The translations under genes and the position numbers were made by a program. Source: Rickettsiales bacterium (GTDB taxonomy: Bacteria > Pseudomonadota > Alphaproteobacteria > Rickettsiales > UBA1997). Taken from it: 48,749 bases of DNA. The notes under the pieces are model-generated. The model was not told the DNA's origin, made no database searches, and was given only the letters and a program-made list of their open reading frames with translations. The stretch is taken from positions 1 through 48,749 of the forward strand of contig JADHOZ010000001.1 of assembly GCA_016778745.1 (NCBI GenBank), written 5' to 3'. Numbering within the stretch: the stretch's first letter is position 1; each line of letters begins with the position of its first letter. Of this stretch, positions 1,092 to 21,366 are shown in pieces.

Positions 1092-1874
1092 TTATTCAAC
1101 TCTTTTCCATACAGCTTTTTTTGCTGCAAGCAAGATTATGAATAAGATGAATAAGAACGTCATTGTTCTCACGCCCATTCTTTTTCTTGCTTCAGTTTCC
1201 GGCTCCGCAACAAATTGTAAAAAATTAACCACGTCAATAGACATTTGTTCTTTTGTTGGGTAAGTGCCGTCTGTGTACTCTACTTGCTCATCGTCAGTGA
1301 TAGGAGGGGGCATTGAGATTTTTCTACCGGGAAAATAGGGATTATAATATTTACCAGTCGCAATCTCAAAACCATATGGAGGTTCTTCATATCCATTAAT
1401 AAGTGAATAAACATAATTTGCGCCATCATGTCTGGCTTTTACAATGAGTGATAAATCAGGCGGAAGTGCGCCTCCATTGGCTGATCTGGCTGCATTTTCA
1501 TTGGCATATGGGCTAACGAATCTATCTGACGGTAGAGCGGGGCGTTCAAACATTTCACCTTCTTCGTCTGGGCCATCAACAACTAAATAGTCACTGGCAA
1601 TTGCTTTAACTTCTTCTTTGCTAAATCCAACATCTTCTAGGTTTCGATATGCAGGTCTTTTTAAGCTATGACAATTTGAGCAAACTTCTTTGTAAACCTT
1701 GAAGCCTCTTTGGATTGAGGCTTTATCAAAGCGACCAAAAAATCCGTCAAATTCCCACTTCATTTGTTTGGGATGAATCGCGTGAGTTGATAATTTTCCT
1801 TCCGCACTTGATCCGCCGCCAGCGAAAGCGACAGTCGGCAATAATAATAAAGTAACTACAAATCTTTTAATCAT
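1092..1874 (-). CDS. petC: Cytochrome c1 of the ubiquinol-cytochrome c reductase (bc1) complex
   Basis: 260 aa. Signal peptide, CSNCH haem c binding motif and a C-terminal TM anchor. Last gene of the pet cluster. Confidence 0.9.
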   Translation of the reverse strand: MIKRFVVTLLLLPTVAFAGGGSSAEGKLSTHAIHPKQMKWEFDGFFGRFDKASIQRGFKVYKEVCSNCHSLKRPAYRNLEDVGFSKEEVKAIASDYLVVDGPDEEGEMFERPALPSDRFVSPYANENAARSANGGALPPDLSLIVKARHDGANYVYSLINGYEEPPYGFEIATGKYYNPYFPGRKISMPPPITDDEQVEYTDGTYPTKEQMSIDVVNFLQFVAEPETEARKRMGVRTMTFLFILFIILLAAKKAVWKRVE

Positions 1875-2170
1875 TAGAATGTAAATAGTTTTTCGTTAAA
1901 ATCTTTAATTTTGCCATCCAGAACTTCAATTCCTTCAGACTTTAGTAATTGAATTTTTTTATCAACTCCAAACGCATAGCCACTAATTCCGCCATCAGAT
2001 CTAACGACTCTATGACAGGGAACTTGCGGAGCATTGGGGTTTAGCCCAACAATTCTTCCAACTTCTCTAAATGCTTGTGACTTAAGTTTTTTTGCTATTT
2101 CACCGTAGGTAGTGACTTTACCTTTTGGTATTTTTTTCAACAGCTCGTAAACGTTAGTTGCATCCAACAT
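1874..2170 (-). CDS. MGMT-family protein (single methylated-DNA-protein-cysteine methyltransferase DNA-binding/active-site domain)
   Basis: 98 aa with a PCHRVV active-site motif and HTH-like segment (TYGEIAKKL). Starts 4 nt after the petB stop. Its TAA overlaps the petC ATG (TAATG). Confidence 0.75.
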   Translation of the reverse strand: MLDATNVYELLKKIPKGKVTTYGEIAKKLKSQAFREVGRIVGLNPNAPQVPCHRVVRSDGGISGYAFGVDKKIQLLKSEGIEVLDGKIKDFNEKLFTF

Positions 2171-2174
2171 TTAG

Positions 2175-3419
2175 TTAATGTTTCGATTTATAATGCGCAT
2201 CAATTGATTCAGGTTCTGGCAGCGTTTTTTCAAACTTCGGCAAGAACGGCATTAAAATCAAGAAATAAGCATAATAGTAGAAAGTGGCAGCTCTTGATGC
2301 CCAAATATACCAACCTTCTGCTGGAGATTTACCAAGCCAACCCAAAAAGATAAAATTCAAAATAAAAATAATGAAAAATTTCTGAAATAATGGTCTATAG
2401 GCGCCGGATCTAACTGGACTTCTGTCGAGGAATGGTAAGGCAAATAGCAAGGCAATTGCACCAAACATCATAAGTACGCCACCGAGTTTGTCCGGAACTG
2501 CACGAAGGATTGCGTAAAATGGTAAGAAATACCATTCCGGTACAATGTGAGGAGGTGTCACCATAGGATTTGCCGGAATGTAATTATCCGGATGTCCCAA
2601 TGAGTTAGGATAGAAAAACAAGAAATAACCAAAGATCAAGAAAAAGGCGACGAAGCCCACCATATCCTTAATAGTGAAATATGGGTGGAATGGAATAGAG
2701 TCTTTTTTTGACTTCATTTCGACACCGCTTGGATTATTAGAGCCGCTTGTATGTAAAGAAACGAGGTGAATCATCACCACGCCCACAATCACGAGTGGTA
2801 AAATGAAATGCAGAGAGAAGAACCTATTTAATGTTGGGTTATCAACAGAATATCCGCCCCATAGCCATGTAACAATTGATTCACCAACAACCGGAATAGC
2901 TGAGAATAGATTTGTAATTACCGTTGCACCCCAAAAGCTCATTTGACCCCATGGCAATACATATCCCATGAAAGCAGTTGCCATAGTGAGTAAGAAAATA
3001 ATAACGCCAATCCACCACAAGATTTCTCGTGGCGCTTTATAAGAACCGTAATAAAGGCCACGTATAATATGCGCATAAAGTGCAACAAAAAACATGGAGG
3101 CACCAACAGCATGAATATAGCGCATCAACCAGCCAAACTTAACGTCTCGCATGATGTGTTCGACAGAATCAAACGCCATTTCAGTGTTGGCGGTGTAATG
3201 CATGGATAGAAATAATCCACTGAGAATTTGAACCACTAAAGCGATTCCAGCGATTGAACCAAAACCCCACCAATAACTAAGGTTTTTTGGATAAGGATGC
3301 TTAAATAATACATTTTCTAGCATGCTAATGACTGGTAAGCGGTCATTAATCCATTTTGCTACTTTTGATTTTTCGGTTAGTGATTGTTTAAAGTCGTTTT
3401 CTATGTGCTTTCCTGACAT
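2175..3419 (-). CDS. petB: Cytochrome b of the bc1 complex
   Basis: 414 aa polytopic membrane protein with typical cytochrome b blocks (WWGFGS, Hxx[19 protein letters not shown]). Confidence 0.95.
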
Positions 3420-3422
3420 GTT

Positions 3423-3953
3423 CTATCCAATTTTAATTACTTTGTCGCTTAGAAATTCATATGGTGGAATTTCTAAATTCTTTGGCGCTGGGCCTTTTCT
3501 AATTCTTGCTGAAGTGTCGTATTGTGAGCCATGACAAGGACAAAACCAGCCATCAAATTCTCCCGCCTCTGGAGTGGGAACGCATCCCAAATGAGTACAA
3601 ATTTCAATTGTAACTAACCATTCTTCTTTCCCTTTTTTAACACGGTCAGAATCCTTTTGTGGGTCACGAAGAGTATTTAGATCAACTTCATTAGCTGCTT
3701 CAATTTCTTTTTTGCTTCTTCTTCTAACGGAAACCGGCTTGCCGCGCCACATTACTTTTTTTGCGCTTCCAACTTCGATTCCAGAAATATCAACTTCCAC
3801 TGAAGATAGGGCTTGAACATCATCTGCCGGATTCAGACTCATTACAAATGGATAAAGCGCGCAAGCTGCACCTGCACCAGCTGTTGTATAAGCAGCATTA
3901 GCTAAGAGTTTGCGACGTTTTTCATCTTTAACTGATTCAATCTTTTTTGACAT
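3423..3953 (-). CDS. petA: Ubiquinol-cytochrome c reductase Rieske iron-sulfur subunit
   Basis: 176 aa with Rieske motifs CTHLGC and CPCHGS. The N-terminus is Tat/TM-like. A 3-nt gap separates it from petB. Confidence 0.9.
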   Translation of the reverse strand: MSKKIESVKDEKRRKLLANAAYTTAGAGAACALYPFVMSLNPADDVQALSSVEVDISGIEVGSAKKVMWRGKPVSVRRRSKKEIEAANEVDLNTLRDPQKDSDRVKKGKEEWLVTIEICTHLGCVPTPEAGEFDGWFCPCHGSQYDTSARIRKGPAPKNLEIPPYEFLSDKVIKIG

Positions 3954-4555: not shown

Positions 4556-5308
4556 ATGCTAAGCAAAGATCAACAACAACGTTATCTAAGAAACATAATC
4601 CTGCCAGAAATTGGCGAAAAGGGTCAACAAAAACTACTGACTGCCAGAGTTTTGGTGATTGGTTCAGGCGGCTTAGGATCTTCAGTTTTATTTTACTTAG
4701 CTGCCGCGGGTGTGGGTAACGTCGGCGTAATGGACTTTGACATCGTTGAATTATCAAACTTACAAAGACAAATAATTCATAATTTAAATGACATTAATAA
4801 AGCAAAAGTTCAAAGCGCTAAAGAAAAAATAAATAAATTAAATCCAAGTGTAAATCTTGAAGTTTTTGAAGAAAAAGCCACGCTAGAATCTCTAAAAAAA
4901 ATAGCCAAAAATTACGATTACATCATAGACGCAACCGATAATTTTCCAACAAGATTTATCATCAACGAATATTGCCTCAAAGCCAAAAAAATTCTCATAT
5001 TTGCTGCAGTAAAAGCATTTTCTGGTCAAGTGTCAGTCTTCAAGTCATATGAAAATAATAATCCATGTTATTCCTGCTTTAATCCTAATGTAGTCGGTGA
5101 AGGATTTTCTTTGCCGTTATCTGAGAAAGGGATATTGGGTTCAGTAGCTGGAACAATAGGTACCCTACAAGCAACTACTACAATTAAAGAAATTTTAGGA
5201 ATAGGTGAGTCGCTGGTTGGTAAGATGTTAATATTTGATTTTTTAGAAAACAAAATTCGTAAGATAAGCTTGAAGAAGAGAGAAAGTTGTAAAATTTGTA
5301 GTAACTGA
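4556..5308 (+). CDS. ThiF/MoeB/HesA-family adenylyltransferase
   Basis: 250 aa with the nucleotide-binding loop VLVIGSGGLGS, SNLQRQ, and paired CxxC motifs (CYSC, CKIC). Confidence 0.8.
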   Translation: MLSKDQQQRYLRNIILPEIGEKGQQKLLTARVLVIGSGGLGSSVLFYLAAAGVGNVGVMDFDIVELSNLQRQIIHNLNDINKAKVQSAKEKINKLNPSVNLEVFEEKATLESLKKIAKNYDYIIDATDNFPTRFIINEYCLKAKKILIFAAVKAFSGQVSVFKSYENNNPCYSCFNPNVVGEGFSLPLSEKGILGSVAGTIGTLQATTTIKEILGIGESLVGKMLIFDFLENKIRKISLKKRESCKICSN

Positions 5309-5378
5309 ATTTACTTAATTGACTTTCTAATTACTATCCATCAGAATCAGCGACCTTATTTTTATCCGTTTTATTTGC

Positions 5379-5464
5379 GGAGGAGTGGCCGAGCGGTCAA
5401 TGGCAACAGACTGTAAATCTGTCCGCGTAAGCGTACGCAGGTTCGAATCCTGCCTCCTCCACCA
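5379..5464 (+). tRNA. tRNA-Tyr (GTA), CCA encoded
   Basis: Cloverleaf folded by eye. Acceptor GGAGGAG/CTCCTCC, anticodon arm ACAGA-CTGTAAA-TCTGT, long variable arm, T arm GCAGG-TTCGAAT-CCTGC, ACCA end. Confidence 0.9.
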
Positions 5465-5501
5465 GCCTTCGCTCTTGTGAGCTATGGCTGGCAGGCCAGA
5501 C
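5465..5501 (+). repeat. Conserved tRNA 3' trailer, copy 1 (GCCTTCGCTCTTGTGAGCTATGGCTGGCAGGCCAGAC)
   Basis: About 31 of 36 aligned positions are identical to the trailer after the CAT-anticodon tRNA (8033-8068). CCAGCC (includes the CCA end) can pair with GGCTGG, enclosing a small inner hairpin GCTC-TTGT-GAGC. Confidence 0.7.
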
Positions 5502-5503
5502 AA

Positions 5504-5536
5504 ACTAAAATTACATATGCGGGTGTAGCTCAATGG
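5504..5536 (+). repeat. Upstream copy of a direct repeat: 15 nt of leader plus the first 18 nt of tRNA-Gly
   Basis: ACTAAAATTACATATGCGGGTGTAGCTCAATGG (5504-5536) versus ACTAAAATTAAATATGCGGGTGTAGCTCAATGG (5667-5699). 32 of 33 positions are identical. Confidence 0.9.
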
Positions 5537-5666
5537 GTTTTTCTTCAAAAAATAGCATTTAACATGCTATTTTTCCAAGAAAAACGGGCAAAGGAGTTTT
5601 TTAAAACGACGCATGCCCCGGCGCGATATTTTCTTCGAGCGAAGCGAGAAAAGAAATATCAGCGTT
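5537..5666 (+). ncRNA. tRNA-linked structured element, copy 1 (unclassified candidate ncRNA or miniature mobile element)
   Basis: Homologous to the reverse complement of 21116-21281. P1 is 5537-5545 GTTTTTCTT pairing with 5577-5585 AAGAAAAAC. P2 is 5548-5558 pairing with 5564-5574. P3 is 5625-5631 GATATTT pairing with 5654-5660 AAATATC. Conserved blocks: AAAAACGGG, AGGAG, TAAAACGACGCA, TCTTCGAGCGAA, AGAAAAG. Confidence 0.6.
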
Positions 5667-5681
5667 ACTAAAATTAAATAT

Positions 5682-5755
5682 GCGGGTGTAGCTCAATGGT
5701 AGAGCCCTAGCCTTCCAAGCTAGTCGTGAGGGTTCGATTCCCTTCACCCGCTCCA
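5682..5755 (+). tRNA. tRNA-Gly (TCC), CCA encoded
   Basis: GCGGGTG acceptor, anticodon arm CTAGC-CTTCCAA-GCTAG, T arm GAGGG-TTCGATT-CCCTT, 3' CACCCGC-T-CCA. Confidence 0.9.
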
Positions 5756-5779
5756 AAAATCAATCACCAAATATTTTAG

Positions 5780-7771
5780 GTGACAAATACATTCAAAATA
5801 CACTCCAAATTCTCCCCCGCAGGAGACCAGCCTAGAGCTATCGAACAGCTTCTTGATGGCATAAATCAGAAGAAAAGAGATCAAATATTGCTTGGTATAA
5901 CTGGATCTGGCAAGACGTTTACCATGGCTAATATTATTGAAAGGACTCAGCGCCCTAGCCTTATTATGGCGCATAATAAAACGTTGGCAGCACAGATTTA
6001 CGGGGAAATGAAAGAGTTTTTTCCAGAAAATGAAATTGGTTATTTTGTATCATTTTATGATTATTATCAGCCAGAAGCTTATATTCCAAGAACCGATACC
6101 TACATTGAAAAAGATAGTTCAATTAACGAACAAATTGATCGACTACGTCACGTGGCAACGCGTGCTTTATTTGAGCGTCGTGATACGATTGTGGTGGCCT
6201 CTGTTTCTTGTATTTATGGTATTGGCTCCCCTGAGTTTTATTCTAATATGGTGGTTCGTTTAAAAGTTGGTGATGAAATTAGTCGTCAAAAGCTGCTTTT
6301 ACGCTTTGTGGATTTACAATATGAAAGAAATGATACTAGTTTTGAGCGCTGTAGTTTCAGGGTGCAAGGTGATACGGTTGATGTTTTCCCGTCTCACGAA
6401 GATGAAAAAGCGTGGCGTATTTCAATGTTTGGTGATGAGATTGATGACATAATCGAATTTGATCCCTTAACCGGAGAAACGTTTGCTAGGTTAGATGAAA
6501 TTGCTCTTTATCCTTCATCGCACTATGTTACTCCGGCCGATACTTTAAAATCAGCCATCGTTAATATAAAACGTGATCTTGCTAAAAGAGTTGAAGAATT
6601 AGAGCAAAAAGGATTTGCAGTCGAGGCTCAAAGGTTAAATCAAAGAACAACGTACGACATGGAAATGATGTTGGAAGTTGGATCGTGTAAAGGAATTGAA
6701 AATTATTCACGCTATCTAACTGGGCGGCCTGCCGGCGCACCTCCGCCAACTCTTTTTGAGTATCTACCAAAGGATGCATTATTATTTGTTGATGAGAGCC
6801 ATGTTTCTGTACCGCAAATTGATGGTATGTATAAAGGTGATTTTGCAAGGAAATCAAATCTTGCAGAGCATGGCTTTAGATTACCAAGTGCATTAGATAA
6901 TCGACCTCTAAAATTTTCGGAGTGGGAAGATTTTAAGCCGCAAACTATTTATGTTTCTGCAACGCCAGGTAAATATGAAAGAGCCAAAACTGATAGTGCA
7001 GTAGTAGAGCAAATCATTCGTCCAACTGGTTTGCTTGACCCAATTTGTGAAATTAGGCCATCATCAAAGCAGGTGATAGATTTACTAAAAGAAATTCAAG
7101 AAACAACGAAAAGAGGGTTTAGAACCCTAGTGACAACGCTTACCAAGAAAATGGCTGAAGACTTGGCTGATTATCTAAACGATAATGGCGTGAACGTTGT
7201 GTACATGCATTCCGATGTAGACACCCTTGATAGAATTGAGATTATCCAAAACCTCCGCCTTGGTAAACATGACTGTTTGGTTGGCGTCAATCTTCTTCGT
7301 GAAGGTTTAGACATTCCAGAATGTGCATTAGTAGCAATATTAGATGCTGACAAAGAGGGTTTCCTTAGAAATGAAACGTCGCTTATTCAGACAATTGGTC
7401 GTGCGGCCAGAAACTCCGAAAGTAAAGTAATTTTATACGCCGATAAAGAAACAAAATCTATCAAAGCTGCCCTGGGTGAAAATAACCGCCGTCGAGAAAT
7501 TCAAATTGCGCATAATAAAAAACACAATATCACGCCAAAAACGACCTACAAAGCCATTGGTTCTTCGCTAGCGAATCTCTACAAAAAAGAAGAGAAGAAG
7601 CAAGCAATTAGCGATTTTAACCATGAAGTAGATATAAAAATGAAACCAACAGCCAAGAATTTAGAGAACCTCAAAAAAGAAATGCTTGAGGCAGCGACTG
7701 ATTTGGATTTTGAAAAAGCGGCTAAAATCAGAGATGAGGTTAGAAAATTGGAGGCATTGCAGTTGATATAG
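5780..7771 (+). CDS. uvrB: Excinuclease ABC subunit B
   Basis: 663 aa, GTG start. Contains Walker A GITGSGKT, helicase motifs and the C-terminal UVR domain ([10 protein letters not shown]). Confidence 0.95.
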
Positions 7772-7956
7772 CAATAATAACACCTTATAGATACTCAATT
7801 AATTTACGGAGTGTGTGCGCTCTGCCATATAAAATACCAAAAAAATAGGAATTGGCATAATATCAGTGGTAATAATTTGATATATCTACGAAGAGTAGGA
7901 AATAAAAGTTTGAAAAATTAAATTTTATGACGAAAATAATTTTTTCTTTTATTTAT

Positions 7957-8032
7957 GGCGGAGTAGCTCAGTCGGTAGAGCAACGGGATCATAATCCGCA
8001 GGTCGGGGGTTCAAGTCCCTCCTCCGCTACCA
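7957..8032 (+). tRNA. tRNA with CAT anticodon (Met, or Ile2 if lysidine-modified), CCA encoded
   Basis: GGCGGAG...CTCCGCT-A-CCA with a G1-T72 wobble. D arm GCTCAGTCGGTAGAGC, anticodon loop ATCATAA, T arm GGGGG-TTCAAGT-CCCTC. Amino-acid identity cannot be settled by eye. Confidence 0.8.
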
Positions 8033-8068
8033 GCCTTCGCTCTTTGAGATACGGCTGGCAGGCCAACC
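8033..8068 (+). repeat. Conserved tRNA 3' trailer, copy 2 (GCCTTCGCTCTTTGAGATACGGCTGGCAGGCCAACC)
   Basis: Aligns with 5465-5501 with the same CCAGCC/GGCTGG pairing potential. Followed by the small hairpin AACCA-GTT-TGGTT (8065-8077), which overlaps the stop of the convergent gene. Confidence 0.7.
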
Positions 8069-8075
8069 AGTTTGG

Positions 8076-17287: not shown

Positions 17288-17776
17288 TCATTCAATTTCT
17301 TCACACTCGCCATTGCCAATGTAAGCATCCAATCCGACAGTAGTAATTTCTTTGTAGCGTGAATTACCTAAGATTCTAATCAAACTTCCCAAAGGACCTT
17401 CAGCATGAATGTTGTAATAAATTCCGGCCGGTTCGAATTTAGCACTAATGCTTTCGCAATCCTCCTCACTGCAGCGAGTGATTTGCTTAGAATCTTTATC
17501 CAAAATTAAATAAGACGACACATCTTTCTTTTTACAAGACCATTTAGCGCATAAAAACCCGGTTCTGGGAGTGCATTTTAGTTTTTTCCATGACATGGAT
17601 TCACGACGATATTGCTGCGCCTGTTTAAATACGTCATCAAAATCCAATTTTTTAATTTTTTCATCTCTTGGATTATTTTCGTCTCTAATAATTTTATAAG
17701 ACACGGCAGATTCAGCAGAAACATTGAAACTAAATAAGGTAAAAAGAATAAATAAGAAGTTAAATAGTGATTTCAT
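17288..17776 (-). CDS. Secreted cysteine-containing hypothetical protein
   Basis: The ORF track extends to 17851. The ATG at 17776 gives MKSLFNFLFILFTLFSFNVSA-ES, a typical signal peptide. The mature part has 6 Cys. No recognisable family. Confidence 0.5.
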   Translation of the reverse strand: MKSLFNFLFILFTLFSFNVSAESAVSYKIIRDENNPRDEKIKKLDFDDVFKQAQQYRRESMSWKKLKCTPRTGFLCAKWSCKKKDVSSYLILDKDSKQITRCSEEDCESISAKFEPAGIYYNIHAEGPLGSLIRILGNSRYKEITTVGLDAYIGNGECEEIE

Positions 17777-18003
17777 GCCAATGAAATTTGATTTAATATT
17801 GATAGGCCATCTTAGGTAGATGGCAATGAAACCTAACGTCATGGATAACATATAGTTAAGATTTATTAAATCAATTTTAAAAAAATGGAGTCAGATTAGT
17901 AGCGGCGTTGAAATAATTTTATTGATATTTTGCGCAGGCAGTCATTAAATAAACCCAAATACCATGGGCAATATGCTCTATGAGTGTCTCACAAAATCAC
18001 ATC

Positions 18004-18726
18004 TTAAAGACGAAACTCTAAAATAAACTCGCTACCTTTACCAGATTGTGAATTGACACTCACAATTCCATTTTGTGCTTCTACTAATTCTTTAACTACT
18101 GACAGCCCTAATCCAAAGGACTCGGATATATTTTTATGGTTAGTTGAATTAAATTTTGTAAAAATACTGGTTAGGTCTTTTTCATCTATTCCATGTCCTT
18201 GGTCTTTAACTACAATTATTAATTTATCATTTTTTACAAAAGCCTTAATATGAACTGTGGTGTTATTGGGGCTATATTTAATGGCATTATTAATCAAATT
18301 TATCATGACTTGTTTGAGTCTTCGTTTATCCAAATAAACTTGTGGTAAGTTATCTTCTATTTCTACCTTGATGTTGATGTGAGACCGAAAAGCGAAGTCC
18401 CTATTAATTTTAATGGATTTGTTAATTACATCAGAAACATCGATTCTATTATTTAGGTCTATACTGAAATTAGAGAAGCTTTCTTTTTTGAAGAAATATA
18501 ATAAATCACCCAGCATTTCATTTAAATCATAGGCAACTTCTTGAATATCATTTATATATTCTTCGCAGTCTTCTTTTGAGTTTGTTTTATTAAGACTCAT
18601 TTTAATTATTTCAGAAAAACCAATGATGGCATTTAATGGGTTTTTTACTTCGTGAACCACACATGGAATCATCGATAATAAATTTGAGTATCTCACATCT
18701 TTGTCATTATACCTATGATGAGTCAT
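18004..18726 (-). CDS. Sensor-less histidine kinase core (DHp + HATPase_c only)
   Basis: 240 aa. H-box VHEVKNPLNAI starts about 20 aa from the N-terminus. N box NLINNAIKYS, G1 DQGHGI, F box FTKF, G2 GLGLSVVKELV. No TM, PAS or other input domain. No response regulator in the window. Confidence 0.8.
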   Translation of the reverse strand: MTHHRYNDKDVRYSNLLSMIPCVVHEVKNPLNAIIGFSEIIKMSLNKTNSKEDCEEYINDIQEVAYDLNEMLGDLLYFFKKESFSNFSIDLNNRIDVSDVINKSIKINRDFAFRSHINIKVEIEDNLPQVYLDKRRLKQVMINLINNAIKYSPNNTTVHIKAFVKNDKLIIVVKDQGHGIDEKDLTSIFTKFNSTNHKNISESFGLGLSVVKELVEAQNGIVSVNSQSGKGSEFILEFRL

Positions 18727-18841
18727 TGCTAATTTTTAAAAACATTAAAAGAGAGATAATTTGTATTATTAGAATCTCACTCTACTATAAGTCAAATTAA
18801 TAATTTTTATTATTATCATTAAAATAATTCATGATATTGTT

Positions 18842-19771
18842 ATGAGCAGTAAAGATTTTGTGTATAAAAATAATCCATTACAGCAGATAAAGGGTTTTTG
18901 CTATACTGTGCAAGAAAATAGTATGACTAAGGCTGCTCACAAAATCGGCATAACCCAGTCTGCTGTTAGTCATCAAATCAAATCACTTGAGAGGGATTTA
19001 GGAATTGAATTATTCATACGAGAAAAAAACAAAATCTTTTTAACCGAGGAAGGTATTATATTTTATAAACATGCTATTTCTTGTCTATCTGGAATAGAAA
19101 GCTTATTTGTAGATATAAAGAAAAATTTGAGAAATCAACAAAATCAAATTTCCATAGCATCAAATCATGCGGTAATATCGTATGTTTTGCCAAAATACCT
19201 AAAGAAATTTCGCGAAGATGAAAAGTTAATAAAATTTAAAATAAGAAACTTATCTAAACAAGATTGTTTTAATAAAATTCTAAATAACGAAGTCGATATT
19301 GTAATTTATCCAACAACTCAAGATGAAATACCAGACGAATTAGAGTTTTATTCAATGGTAAAATATCAGCCAATTCTACTTACTCATAAACAACATGCCT
19401 TGGCAAATAAGAAAGAAATTACACTAAAAGACGTATCAAAATATAATCTACTTAGAATCGACCCTAATTTAATAACTCTTCCAGGTTTTGAAGAATTGCT
19501 TAAGTCTCATAAAATAAGCTCGTCAATTGAGTTTGAGATGTCTGATTGGGAAATTTTAAAGAAATTTGTTAAAGCTGATTTGGGGGTTGCAATGATATCT
19601 AACATAGTTTTGGAAGGGGAAGAAGAGAAAGACTTATCTCAAATGCATATTACTCAGTATTTTCCTGAAATGGATTATGGTTTTTTTATCAAAAAAGGAA
19701 AAAAATTAGAAGGCGTCCTAGAAAATTTTGTTCGACTACTACAAAGTTACAAGCCATTAGAGGTGCAATAA
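18842..19771 (+). CDS. LysR-family transcriptional regulator
   Basis: 309 aa with an N-terminal HTH (SMTKAAHKIGITQSAVSHQIKSLERDLG) and a C-terminal substrate-binding domain. Divergent from the kinase gene. Confidence 0.85.
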   Translation: MSSKDFVYKNNPLQQIKGFCYTVQENSMTKAAHKIGITQSAVSHQIKSLERDLGIELFIREKNKIFLTEEGIIFYKHAISCLSGIESLFVDIKKNLRNQQNQISIASNHAVISYVLPKYLKKFREDEKLIKFKIRNLSKQDCFNKILNNEVDIVIYPTTQDEIPDELEFYSMVKYQPILLTHKQHALANKKEITLKDVSKYNLLRIDPNLITLPGFEELLKSHKISSSIEFEMSDWEILKKFVKADLGVAMISNIVLEGEEEKDLSQMHITQYFPEMDYGFFIKKGKKLEGVLENFVRLLQSYKPLEVQ

Positions 19772-19814
19772 TAATTTTGCCAAACTTTTGAGATTTAAAT
19801 ATTCTTGTTTAGTT

Positions 19815-19844
19815 TACATCTATTGGCGAAATAATCTAGATGTA
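19815..19844. promoter_or_regulatory. Dyad TACATCTA-N14-TAGATGTA upstream of the cupin gene
   Basis: 8-bp perfect inverted repeat 39-68 nt upstream of the 19883 start, directly downstream of the LysR gene. Candidate operator or terminator-like hairpin. Confidence 0.3.
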
Positions 19845-19882
19845 GGGAGTGCAGAAAAAAATCAAATATTATCCTAATTAAA

Positions 19883-21036
19883 ATGAGAACAGCATACTTT
19901 ACAAAGTTACCAAGGAGACAAAACATCAATCGCACTTTAAGTTCAATGTTGGATGGTATGGGTATAGGATATGCGTCAATATATCAAGCTCGATTATATT
20001 CCAGTGAGTCCGGTGATGATTTGCCAATGCAATATACAAAAATAAAAGATGTTGAAAATGATGAAATTAATAGGTTTAGTGTTATACCAGCTAAATTACA
20101 AAAATATCCTAAAGGTTTGTTAATAGATCCTAGACAGAAAAAAGTTTTTCAAATTGCTAATCAAGATATATCATTATCTCCTCAAGATACAATGAGACAA
20201 TTAGTGGTTTTCTCAAAAGATGGTATAGACATAAAATACGCAAAGAGGGGTGTCGCGGCATCGAGATCAGAATCATTAGAAGAGATGTTAAAAAAGGTAC
20301 CTTTTCCATACCTAGAGATTCATTTGGTGTGCTTGATATACAAGAACACGTCCCTTTTAGAATTGATACTAAAGATGAGCAATCGTTCGTCATTTCATCT
20401 AGTCAATTATTGGAAGTTCCTACCTTTGAAGAAAATATTTCAAGATATAATTTAGTGAAAATTATAGATATACCACCAGAGACTGCAAAAATACTTTCTA
20501 TCAATTTACAAAGAGCCATATACGAAGATAAAAATAATGAATATTTTTATGAAGAAGTAACCGCAAAAAAATATTCACCAACAAAATATAATAGAAGCAG
20601 TGGTACATTAATGAATTTTGAAACAGATTTATTAGGAGTTGAGCGAAGAACAGAATCACATTATCACCCAGGCGAAAGAAGTTTGTATATAGTTACTACC
20701 AATAAGACAGCGGGAGTAACTCTTAATTTTTGCGGTATAGTTGAAAGCCCGGACGATAGAAAGGATTGTGAAGTAAAACTGGAGTTCCCAAAAAACTCAA
20801 TTTTATCTCTAAATTTTCCACCCTATACTCACCATAAATTTAATGGAGAGTTTATCTGCATGAGTATACACCCAAGAGAAGGAGCGAATCTAATAGAATC
20901 ATTAGAAAACGGCACTTTGCCTAAAGGATTTCTTGAAAGTGCTACTGTTTTCTCCCCCAAGGGCGAGAGTTGGAGAGTGAGTAACCCGGAAGCTCATGAT
21001 ACACAAAGCAGAGATGCTTCTTCAGGCAGATCGTAA
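19883..21036 (+). CDS. Cupin-domain protein encoded in two overlapping frames (19883-20455 and 20161/20329-21036), joinable at 20290-20296
   Basis: The C-terminal part has cupin motifs ESHYHPGERSLYIV and FPPYTHHKFNGEF. The zero-frame tail after 20296 looks like out-of-frame junk. A -1 change at A_AAA_AAG gives a continuous 384-aa product. The stop codon abuts the 3' end of tRNA-Arg. Confidence 0.45.
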
Positions 21037-21113
21037 TGGCGCACCCGAGAGGATTCGAACCCCTAACCTTCTGATCCGTAGTCAGATGCTCTATCCAGTT
21101 GAGCCACGGGTGC
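21037..21113 (-). tRNA. tRNA-Arg (ACG), CCA encoded
   Basis: Reverse complement is GCACCCGTGGCTCAACTGGATAGAGCATCTGACTACGGATCAGAAGGTTAGGGGTTCGAATCCTCTCGGGTGCGCCA. Anticodon loop is CTACGGA. Confidence 0.9.
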
Positions 21114-21115
21114 AT

Positions 21116-21281
21116 TTAGATAATTTATTAAGCTAAAGATTTACTCTTCTTCTTAAATTTCCATTAATTCCTTTTCTTGCTTTCGCTCGAAGAGAATTAA
21201 TGGTCTGGGTTTGCGTCGTTTTACTCCTGAACCCGTTTTTAACTAAAATTGATTATTAATCAATTTTTTAACGTTAAAAAC
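21116..21281 (-). ncRNA. tRNA-linked structured element, copy 2 (unclassified candidate ncRNA or miniature mobile element)
   Basis: In tRNA orientation it aligns with 5537-5666. P1 is 21273-21281 pairing with 21235-21243 (GTTTTTAAC/GTTAAAAAC). P2 is the palindrome at 21245-21267. P3 is 21194-21203 pairing with 21161-21170 (CCATTAATTC/GAATTAATGG). It shares the same conserved blocks. Confidence 0.6.
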
Positions 21282-21306
21282 CTATCCAGTTGAGCCACGG
21301 GTGCAT
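21282..21306 (-). repeat. Upstream copy of a direct repeat: 2 nt of leader plus the first 23 nt of tRNA-Arg
   Basis: CTATCCAGTTGAGCCACGGGTGCAT at 21282-21306 is identical (25 of 25) to 21091-21115. Confidence 0.9.
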
Positions 21307-21366
21307 ATTAGTAGTTATATTGTGAAGGAGAGAGTTGCAAACCCCGGCCCACAATAAATATAAAGT

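Follow-up and report, generated by a model that had tools for sequence, protein, structure and literature searches.

It has been previously reported that pelagiphages of the HTVC019P type enter SAR11 tRNA genes through 11-46 bp cores overlapping the tRNA 5' end, and that the phage supplies the partial 5' tRNA sequence that rebuilds the gene (bioRxiv 10.1101/410191). Here we describe a small structured element found in front of tRNA-Gly, and again in front of tRNA-Arg, in a 48,749-nucleotide (nt) stretch of DNA from a Rickettsiales bacterium (assembly GCA_016778745.1, contig JADHOZ010000001.1, positions 1 to 48,749; hereafter the window). The likeness to those phages is close: in both, an insert separates a partial 5' tRNA copy from a rebuilt tRNA, and the repeats are of similar length; the phages have SAR11 hosts and the relatives of the window host are labelled Pelagibacterales or Rickettsiales; and the tRNA loci are recombination hot spots. 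Unlike HTVC019P-type phages, genomic islands or tycheposons, however, the element is only 130-170 nt long and non-coding, contains no integrase and no phage DNA, has a covarying four-helix fold and occurs at eight or more tRNAs. We consider it probable that we are dealing with a family of non-autonomous, fold-conserved insertion elements that occupies the 5' part of tRNA genes, duplicates a 17-33 bp target, and is probably transcribed together with the tRNA, RNase P then releasing it.

Small non-autonomous insertion elements are known in kind, but this family has not been annotated previously, and no prior description of it was found in the searchable literature. Like Correia/NEMIS, RUP, ERIC and RPE sequences, the element is short, non-coding, structured and dispersed, and it is tolerated within genes or operons, where it would likewise be co-transcribed. 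Rickettsia palindromic elements (RPE), which insert without duplication and often in frame within open reading frames, may resemble it, and its layout differs from theirs by the tRNA D-loop target and the duplicated 5' segment. Miniature inverted-repeat transposable elements (MITEs) differ further: our element has no terminal inverted repeats, a duplication of variable length (17-33 bp, versus a fixed 2-10 bp), a strict tRNA D-loop target and orientation, and a variable right end. A DDE-derived MITE was rejected on two counts, the lack of terminal inverted repeats and the lack of a fixed short target duplication, the latter because the stubs represent a variable repeat of 17-33 nt. By analogy of outcome only, Cas1-Cas2 spacer integration and the long, variable target duplications of IS1634-type elements also give a flanking duplication of ~30 bp, which implies strand nicks ~20-35 bp apart; the element has no inverted-repeat ends, and neither a Cas1 nor a transposase Pfam match was found in the window. 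In its proposed expression the element would be similar to MALAT1-mascRNA, plant tRNA-small nucleolar RNA (snoRNA) dicistrons and small RNAs from bacterial tRNA spacers such as 3'ETS-leuZ, where a non-tRNA RNA within a tRNA transcript obtains its end from RNase P or RNase Z, whereas these are fixed host genes without target duplication and, in Rfam scans, show no sequence or structure similarity to the element.

The arrangement is most easily seen at the Gly locus. A repeat finder run over the window returned a 33-nt direct repeat at 5504-5536 and 5667-5699 (32/33 identical, 97%), and ARAGORN placed an intact tRNA-Gly(TCC) at 5682-5755 (+), which also scored 71.7 bits in the Rfam covariance scan. 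These results confirmed the first-pass annotation, made from the sequence alone, in which the repeat had been read as leader plus the tRNA-Gly 5' end: each copy consists of 15 nt of leader followed by tRNA nucleotides 1-18 and stops at the D-loop GG. By our own estimate, the chance expectation for a 33-mer with at most one mismatch in 48.7 kb is ~1e-9. The upstream copy (5504-5536, +) forms a dead stub, the structured element occupies 5537-5666 (+), and the duplicated 15-nt leader at 5667-5681 (+; 14/15 identical to 5504-5518) abuts the intact tRNA, which is thereby regenerated downstream of the element. For this leader duplication the within-locus score was 10, compared with a cross-locus mean of 0.5 (standard deviation 4.2).

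The 130 nt between the Gly repeats proved homologous by alignment to a segment upstream of tRNA-Arg(ACG), as had been claimed initially, and a covariance model confirmed this homologue; the Arg copy in addition has a stub of its own. On the reverse strand, the Arg locus comprises the stub at 21282-21311 (~7 nt of leader plus tRNA nucleotides 1-23, GCACCCGTGGCTCAACTGGATAG, the final G being ambiguous with the first G of the element), the element with helices P1 to P4 at 21150-21281 (123.8 bits), an AT-rich 3' tail with a short duplicated leader reaching to tRNA-Arg +1 (21114-21149), and the intact tRNA-Arg(ACG) at 21037-21113, found by both ARAGORN and the Rfam scan. Within the window, TAAAACGACGCA is confined to the Gly and Arg element sites (0.19 occurrences expected), and with filters off the covariance model returned exactly two copies, at 5536-5677 (+, 101 bits) and 21150-21282 (-, 124 bits). 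These copies lie on opposite DNA strands, each co-oriented with its own tRNA, and are flanked by thiF and uvrB (Gly) and by recA (Arg).

We gathered further loci (designated L004, L007 and so on) through UvrB relatives and through a degenerate pattern run over metagenome contigs and viral contigs, and built the covariance model from nine copies. What had been described as a two-member family has many more members outside the window. The wider search recovered copies at tRNA-Gly (L009/L010/L015, 101 bits; L014, 118 bits), tRNA-Val-GAC (L016, 128 bits), tRNA-Lys-CTT (L023, 89 bits, its 5' part cut by the contig end), tRNA-Tyr-GTA (L024, 143 bits) and tRNA-Asp-GTC (L028, 97 bits), as well as at a Ser-like tRNA 5' end (L020, 127 bits) and one unidentified tRNA (L022, 110 bits), the contigs ending at the last two. 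The family spans non-coding elements of ~130-170 nt at eight or more tRNA genes, with scores of 89-143 bits and E-values of 1e-20 to 1e-34. Wherever a contig shows it, the order is the same and on one strand: a stub of the following tRNA, an element starting with GGTTTTT, an AT-rich tail, and the intact tRNA. At every complete locus the sequence common to stub and intact tRNA comprises 15-23 nt of the tRNA itself and 0-15 nt of leader, and the D-loop junction falls after tRNA position 15 (Asp), 16-17 (Val), 19 (Gly, Tyr) or 21-22 (Arg), preceded by G in every case. Repeat lengths are 33 nt (window Gly), ~30 nt (window Arg), ~31 nt (L020), 19 nt (L013) and 17 nt (L028), and the 3' tail differs in both length and sequence among members. 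One locus viewed alone would look like a local tandem duplication of a tRNA 5' end, or a chance repeat. A simple tandem duplication with unrelated spacer was the finding that the first-pass annotation had named as speaking against its own claim; the spacer is instead homologous across all loci, at eight different tRNA genes and with the E-values given above, and its stems covary, so that we give this explanation practically no weight.

The minimum free energy (MFE) fold of the Gly element (-45.5 kcal/mol, compared with -24.3 ± 3.6 for shuffles; z = -5.9) reproduced the P1, P2 and 3' hairpin predicted initially. On the forward strand, P1 pairs 5537-5545 with 5577-5585, the P2 hairpin spans 5548-5574, and the 3' hairpin, here called P4, spans 5620-5666 and carries TCTTCGA-GC-GAA-GC-GAGAAAAG. 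The part formerly regarded as a purine-rich linker and GC-rich patch is actually a covarying helix, P3, in which GGGCA (5586-5590) pairs with TGCCC (5614-5618) and encloses AAGGAG, a mini-hairpin and CGACGCA. In model-based alignments of ten sequences, 92.7-93.1% of the cells in the four helices (33 pairs) were standard pairs, compared with 41-53% when the partners were slid by 1-3 columns; both sides had changed in 14-15 pairs, and none of 500 shuffles reached the covariation score. RNAalifold, applied to a plain MAFFT alignment, independently recovered P3 and P4 with compensatory pairs, and single-sequence MFE folds gave the same helices. Taken together, these results demonstrate that the stems are supported by covariation in additional homologues.

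Several features of the fold are shared by the copies. P3, which occurs as GGGCA/TGCCC, GGGTT/AACCC, GAGAA/TTCTC or GGTTT/AAACC, surrounds conserved AGGAG and CGACGC strands that flank a small hairpin of variable length, and in P4 the conserved TCTTCGA and GAGAAAAG strands stand on either side of a GC-GAA(A)-GC cap (GCGAAGC or GCGAAAGC). Both conserved G/A-rich internal loops have the form NGAG...CGAN, which we take to be possible tandem sheared G-A pairs. Paired cells include 17 G-U versus 4 A-C, among them one U-G that is invariant in all copies; this excess favours the tRNA-sense strand, and we infer that the fold is selected in that strand, most likely as RNA. Two loci depart from the standard form. 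In L013 (55-205) the 18-nt tRNA-Gly stub recurs, but what follows it is only a divergent relative of the element (24 bits): this has a hairpin like P2, a helix like P3 with a TGAG...CGAA loop and an additional hairpin (CAGAGATTTATCTCTG), and no P4. In L022 (3060-3351) the element forms a tandem array of 2.4 units with a 123-nt period that runs off the contig end; units 2 and 3 are without P1, and only in P1-P2 do they depart from unit 1, the changes in P2 being compensated.

A fold of this kind could also matter in DNA, and we considered a derivative of a single-strand-DNA transposon (IS200/IS605 PATE-like or rolling-circle) moved by an HUH enzyme that would recognise the hairpins. Such a derivative would be consistent with the absence of terminal inverted repeats, with hairpins near both ends, with the strand-specific structure and with a left junction always after G. 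The Gly copy folds well on both strands, and the P4 caps, GCGAAGC or GCGAAAGC, form unusually stable mini-hairpins in DNA. IS200/IS605 and IS91-type elements, however, are not known to make a target duplication, unlike the 17-33 nt duplication seen here. Furthermore, the orientation tracks the tRNA and not replication (the window copies are on opposite strands within one rising stretch of cumulative GC skew), no Pfam transposase match of any kind occurs in the window, and the unconserved right end argues against an HUH-type element. We regard this origin as highly improbable.

To examine the insertion itself, we turned to orthologous loci in relatives, a comparison that the first-pass annotation had proposed, and found that close relatives lack the element at both window loci. 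At the Gly site this holds for L007 and L008 (UvrB 86% identical), where tRNA-Tyr, a 114-nt spacer and tRNA-Gly follow one another without stub or element. The Arg site is empty in L044 (RecA 95%) and in L046-L050 (RecA 90%), where an intact tRNA-Arg follows recA after a spacer and neither a stub nor a covariance-model match is present. In L024 (UvrB 82%), the element beside uvrB sits at tRNA-Tyr instead of tRNA-Gly. Because occupancy varies among close relatives and the tRNA host varies by lineage, the element is an insertion.

These observations bear on the possibility that the element is a host leader RNA of tRNA operons, vertically inherited and non-mobile, with the stubs incidental. Its invariable position upstream of, and co-oriented with, a tRNA would be expected of such a leader, as would the conserved fold and the persistence in streamlined genomes, which usually shed useless DNA. 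Nevertheless, presence and absence alternate between relatives whose flanking proteins are 86-95% identical, and different tRNAs are used in different lineages, as with Tyr instead of Gly beside uvrB in L024. Every complete copy carries a stub of its own downstream tRNA, which is not a product of vertical leader inheritance, and modules reassort between copies. As a full explanation, a host leader RNA is already contradicted, and we hold it to be very unlikely. A cis-regulatory leader, one of three readings originally offered, is likewise unsupported: close relatives differ in whether they carry the element, and it is not restricted to a single tRNA.

The reassortment is seen when the two halves of the element are compared separately. 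The window Gly and L028 copies are 96% identical in P1-P2 and 57% in the linker and P4, and L028 and L016 are 63% identical in P1-P2 and 82% in the 3' part. Similarly, L009 is 92% and then 65% identical to window Gly, and 54% and then 86% identical to L024, in P1-P2 and the 3' part, respectively. The Asp copy in L028 accordingly combines a window-Gly-like P1-P2 with a 3' half like that of the Val copy in L016, and it has a GG-plus-T8 left junction. The exchange of P1-P2 and P3-P4 modules among copies indicates that they recombine.

Another of the original readings, a miniature mobile element that hits the D-arm region of tRNA genes and regenerates the tRNA, is supported by the copies at multiple tRNAs, the empty sites, the covariation and the lack of a known family. 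The duplication and the tRNA regeneration hold; that the repeat is a true target-site duplication is less certain, as it could be an element-borne core resembling an attachment (att) site, as in SAR11 podophages. This brings in the principal competing explanation, namely that the loci are scars or miniature satellites of tyrosine-integrase elements that use tRNA 5' ends, the repeat being a carried att core and the structured core being DNA that flanked attP. Integration of HTVC019P-type phages gives the same order of stub, insert and intact tRNA, repeats of 17-33 bp lie within the 11-46 bp range of their cores, and co-orientation with the tRNA would be automatic. Partial-tRNA direct repeats, as expected of an integrase element, are present at every complete locus, and in L013 and L028 the repeats start at tRNA +1, which fits an element-borne att-like core as well as it fits a variable target duplication. 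The same tRNA loci are integration hot spots, with 3'-end duplications in L004 and L014, and in L028 an integrase-like open reading frame (ORF), recognized by eye with no family search, adjoins tRNA-Asp.

Evidence of a phage or integrase origin was nonetheless not found in the inserts themselves. At ~11 loci no integrase or phage gene lies between stub and tRNA, the insert being always the 130-170 nt element, singly or in tandem. The core is not in the int-RNAP spacer of HTVC019P, and by covariance model it is absent from the first 12 kb of HTVC019P and from 45 kb of HTVC008M. A blastn search of both window loci against 50,697 phage records returned nothing beyond the tRNA part. Two pattern scans of IMG/VR gave one real match, L028, where the element is in the host flank and the integrase-like ORF (by eye) is on the opposite, 3' side of tRNA-Asp; an IMG/VR match to the P4 motif was a chance occurrence inside a GC-rich integrase gene. 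In addition, a single core family would require att cores specific to eight or more different tRNAs, double-stranded protein-binding arms would not be expected to show compensatory changes in four helices, and a circle of ~160-200 bp would, by our own reasoning, be a poor recombinase substrate. An integrase scar or satellite is thus possible but, in our judgement, unlikely.

We also asked whether the element carries any feature of a known family. Of the Rfam 15 families, tRNA alone reaches its gathering score in the window, and at E-values up to 10 the element regions of the window and of five other loci give only sub-threshold microRNA and snoRNA noise, which bears out the initial statement that no described RNA family was recognized. 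No conserved ORF was found: ATG-initiated frames are not shared between the copies, and an ATG is lacking altogether in the Arg copy. A small coding ORF was rejected on these grounds, the frames differing in L009 and the AGGAG of the Gly copy lying 16 nt from its sole ATG. Terminal inverted repeats were not found in the alignments, inspected by eye, where a conserved left GGTTTTT faces an unconserved AT-rich tail. A consensus scan detected no promoter-like or terminator-like site inside either window copy, and a terminator-promoter cassette was discarded, the U-run of P2 being paired within P1-P2. All window ORFs with a Pfam match are ordinary cellular genes and none is an integrase, transposase, reverse transcriptase (RT) or Cas1; six have no Pfam match, and three of these six lie in a low-GC stretch next to tRNA-Arg.

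Other candidates were set aside. For a group I or II intron, no intron model matches, the downstream tRNA is intact and uninterrupted, and its 5' segment is duplicated. A retron or other RT-linked non-coding RNA was not supported, with no RT domain in the window and thiF, uvrB and recA as neighbours. As to a guide or bridge RNA, the conserved loops are constant across target tRNAs and the variable parts show, by eye, no consistent complementarity to tRNA. Pairing between stub and element, or a tRNA-like fold, was rejected, seven MFE folds showing no consistent partner.

How might an insertion into a tRNA gene be tolerated? As no promoter was found inside it, the element is probably transcribed from the tRNA promoter within the pre-tRNA. 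In the window, a sigma-70-like match (TTGACT-17-CAGAAT, 5319-5347, +) upstream of tRNA-Tyr is a consensus match only, with 0.9 expected by chance, although the block is visibly conserved in L004 and L007. It is the sole promoter-like site that the consensus scan found within 5250-5850 and is therefore the likely start of a transcript running through tRNA-Tyr(GTA) (5379-5464, +; ARAGORN and Rfam scan), the first of the tRNA pair, and on through stub and element to tRNA-Gly. In the model we propose, the tRNA promoter would drive stub, element and tRNA as one pre-tRNA, and the RNase P cut at tRNA +1 would free a functional tRNA and give the stub-element RNA a defined 3' end. Release of an RNA by RNase P, which the first-pass annotation had offered as a separate reading, is compatible with mobility and would be part of this model. 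With RNase P release and a tRNA promoter, the insertion would be both harmless to the host and highly expressed, and this would explain its tolerance in genomes that shed non-functional DNA.

Spread to new tRNA genes would need an agency acting in trans, either a staggered-cut enzyme or an enzyme-free process of copy choice or template switching. In the first case, an activity nicking the strands 17-33 bp apart would create a true target duplication, and only events spanning tRNA +1 would survive. In the second, a nascent strand would copy the leader and D-arm, switch to the stub of a donor locus, copy the element and return in the AT-rich leader, the D-arm being the 5' segment most alike among different tRNAs. 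No dedicated enzyme would be needed: templated copying of this kind would by itself account for insertion at the D-loop, a junction of variable position, a forced orientation, a right end that is not conserved and ends that lack inverted repeats. The GG-plus-T8 junction and mixed halves of L028 hint at template switching, although the T-run could also be explained by homopolymer slippage. Between strains, spread at the same tRNA would proceed by homologous recombination.

Several points weigh against a mobile, RNase P-freed insertion element. No mobilising enzyme was found, and no transposase lies next to any copy. A transposase substrate would not usually have an unconserved right end. Only in window Gly and L020 does leader duplication clearly exceed the AT-rich background, and the L013 and L028 repeats begin within 2 nt of tRNA +1. 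The family comprises only ~11 loci, several on short contigs, and no free copy, nor any away from a tRNA gene, was seen. That the element is transcribed and then released by RNase P is itself an inference. As to the strand, 9 of the 17 G-U cells stem from the one invariant U-G pair, and the Gly copy folds equally well on both strands (-45.5 versus -45.1 kcal/mol), so that a role as RNA is only likely and the structure may instead be one of single-stranded DNA. On balance we still favour the insertion-element explanation. A more speculative version, to which we attach a low probability, is that the element is a self-propagating RNA hitchhiker, which would owe its expression to the tRNA promoter and its 3' end to RNase P, and whose four-helix RNA with its two G/A-rich loops would directly help to copy the element into the D-loop region of further tRNA genes. 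The RNA would serve as template or guide for a host enzyme, or integration would be of a ruler type that duplicates ~30 bp; compared with a short interspersed nuclear element or a guide-RNA transposon, such a hitchhiker would be a bacterial, protein-less analogue, in genomes regarded as nearly without mobile DNA.

The tRNA genes concerned have other variable features in their surroundings. A hairpin of the form CCA-NNC-TTCGCTC-TTNN-GAGCTAC-GNN-TGG-CAGGCC is conserved from the CCA end of several tRNAs (Tyr, Met, Gly, Val), with sites at 5462-5498 and 8030-8065 in the window, the latter next to tRNA-Met (7957-8032, +; ARAGORN), and at 3713-3750 and 3901-3938 in L007, 3722-3762 (-) in L004 and 1342-1385 in L028. 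Its outer stem covaries (AGCC/GGCT, ATGC/GCAT, AGGC/GCCT), and it may be a signal for trailer processing or termination; it is not present after the tRNA-Gly and tRNA-Arg of the window. L004, the closest relative by UvrB (92%), has the tRNA-Tyr/tRNA-Gly pair in inverted orientation, and ~32 nt of tRNA-Gly 3' end and flank are duplicated (3510-3541 and 3601-3633) around a hairpin-bearing insert of ~60 nt, which mirrors the 5' duplication of the element at the opposite tRNA end. In L014 (1364-1470) the tRNA-Gly 3' end (CCCTTCACCCGCTCCA) likewise recurs ~75 nt downstream (CCCTTCACCTGCTCCA), past a hairpin-rich insert, and zeta-toxin-like, DUF2188 and SIR2-like genes (1506-3410) follow ahead of uvrB. 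The toxin and DUF2188 genes are also found in L009, and these genes form a small variable island on the 3' side of tRNA-Gly.

Similar variation is seen at the other loci. L046 has recA, tRNA-Arg, one ORF and ferritin, whereas the window has, 3' of tRNA-Arg, ~3.7 kb of low-GC DNA (including 17288-20455; 29% GC in 18-20 kb) in which a fragment of a histidine kinase, a LysR regulator and unknown ORFs are encoded. The ~100 nt directly downstream of tRNA-Arg (20940-21036) are unusually GC-rich and have no Rfam match. Among L005-L008 the interval between uvrB and tRNA-Met is variable, some carrying RelB/YafQ and ParD/ParE pairs and the window (7772-8075) none; a YheCD-type ATP-grasp gene past tRNA-Met is common to the window and its relatives. 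Typical islands lie on the 3' sides of tRNAs that bear the element on their 5' sides, at 797-3382 in L016 (after tRNA-Val, type I restriction-modification methylase-like and Fic/DOC-like genes, by eye), at 1930-2184 in L028 (after tRNA-Asp, a P4-type integrase-like ORF, by eye) and at 4487-5593 in L044 (after tRNA-Arg, a Pfam-annotated Fic protein).

The carriers belong to an uncultured, AT-rich, aquatic alphaproteobacterial group. The window is a contig of a metagenome-assembled genome; its relatives are labelled Rickettsiales, Pelagibacterales, Alphaproteobacteria or Pseudomonadota, the GC content of the window is ~35%, and that of element-bearing contigs ranges from 32 to 47%. A fairly permissive pattern returned only six true matches from 241 million metagenome records, indicating that the element is uncommon or varies beyond the search pattern. 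ThrS relatives of L022 represented a different locus with no element, and a search for exact matches to the RecA of the window returned none. A genome-collection search with AAAACGACGCA...CTTCGAGCGAA, a pattern that was too strict, gave two matches, in Acidobacteriota and Thermoguttaceae contigs, both of which the covariance model identified as chance.

Streamlining has its textbook example in SAR11-like genomes, which are held to contain hardly any insertion elements. A non-coding element that is dispersed, polymorphic and recombining within their tRNA operons is at odds with that view. An early non-coding RNA screen in SAR11 excluded tRNA-containing intergenic regions (PMC2704228), and this exclusion may explain why the element was overlooked. 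In annotation, the stubs can pass for tRNA pseudogenes or for att scars left by an integrase. The layout shows how a single-copy essential gene could be invaded at no cost, through duplication of its 5' end, use of its own promoter and RNase P, and the covarying fold with conserved G/A-rich loops makes the family a candidate class of structured RNA for biochemistry. If it were true that the RNA itself drives copying, the element would be categorically new.

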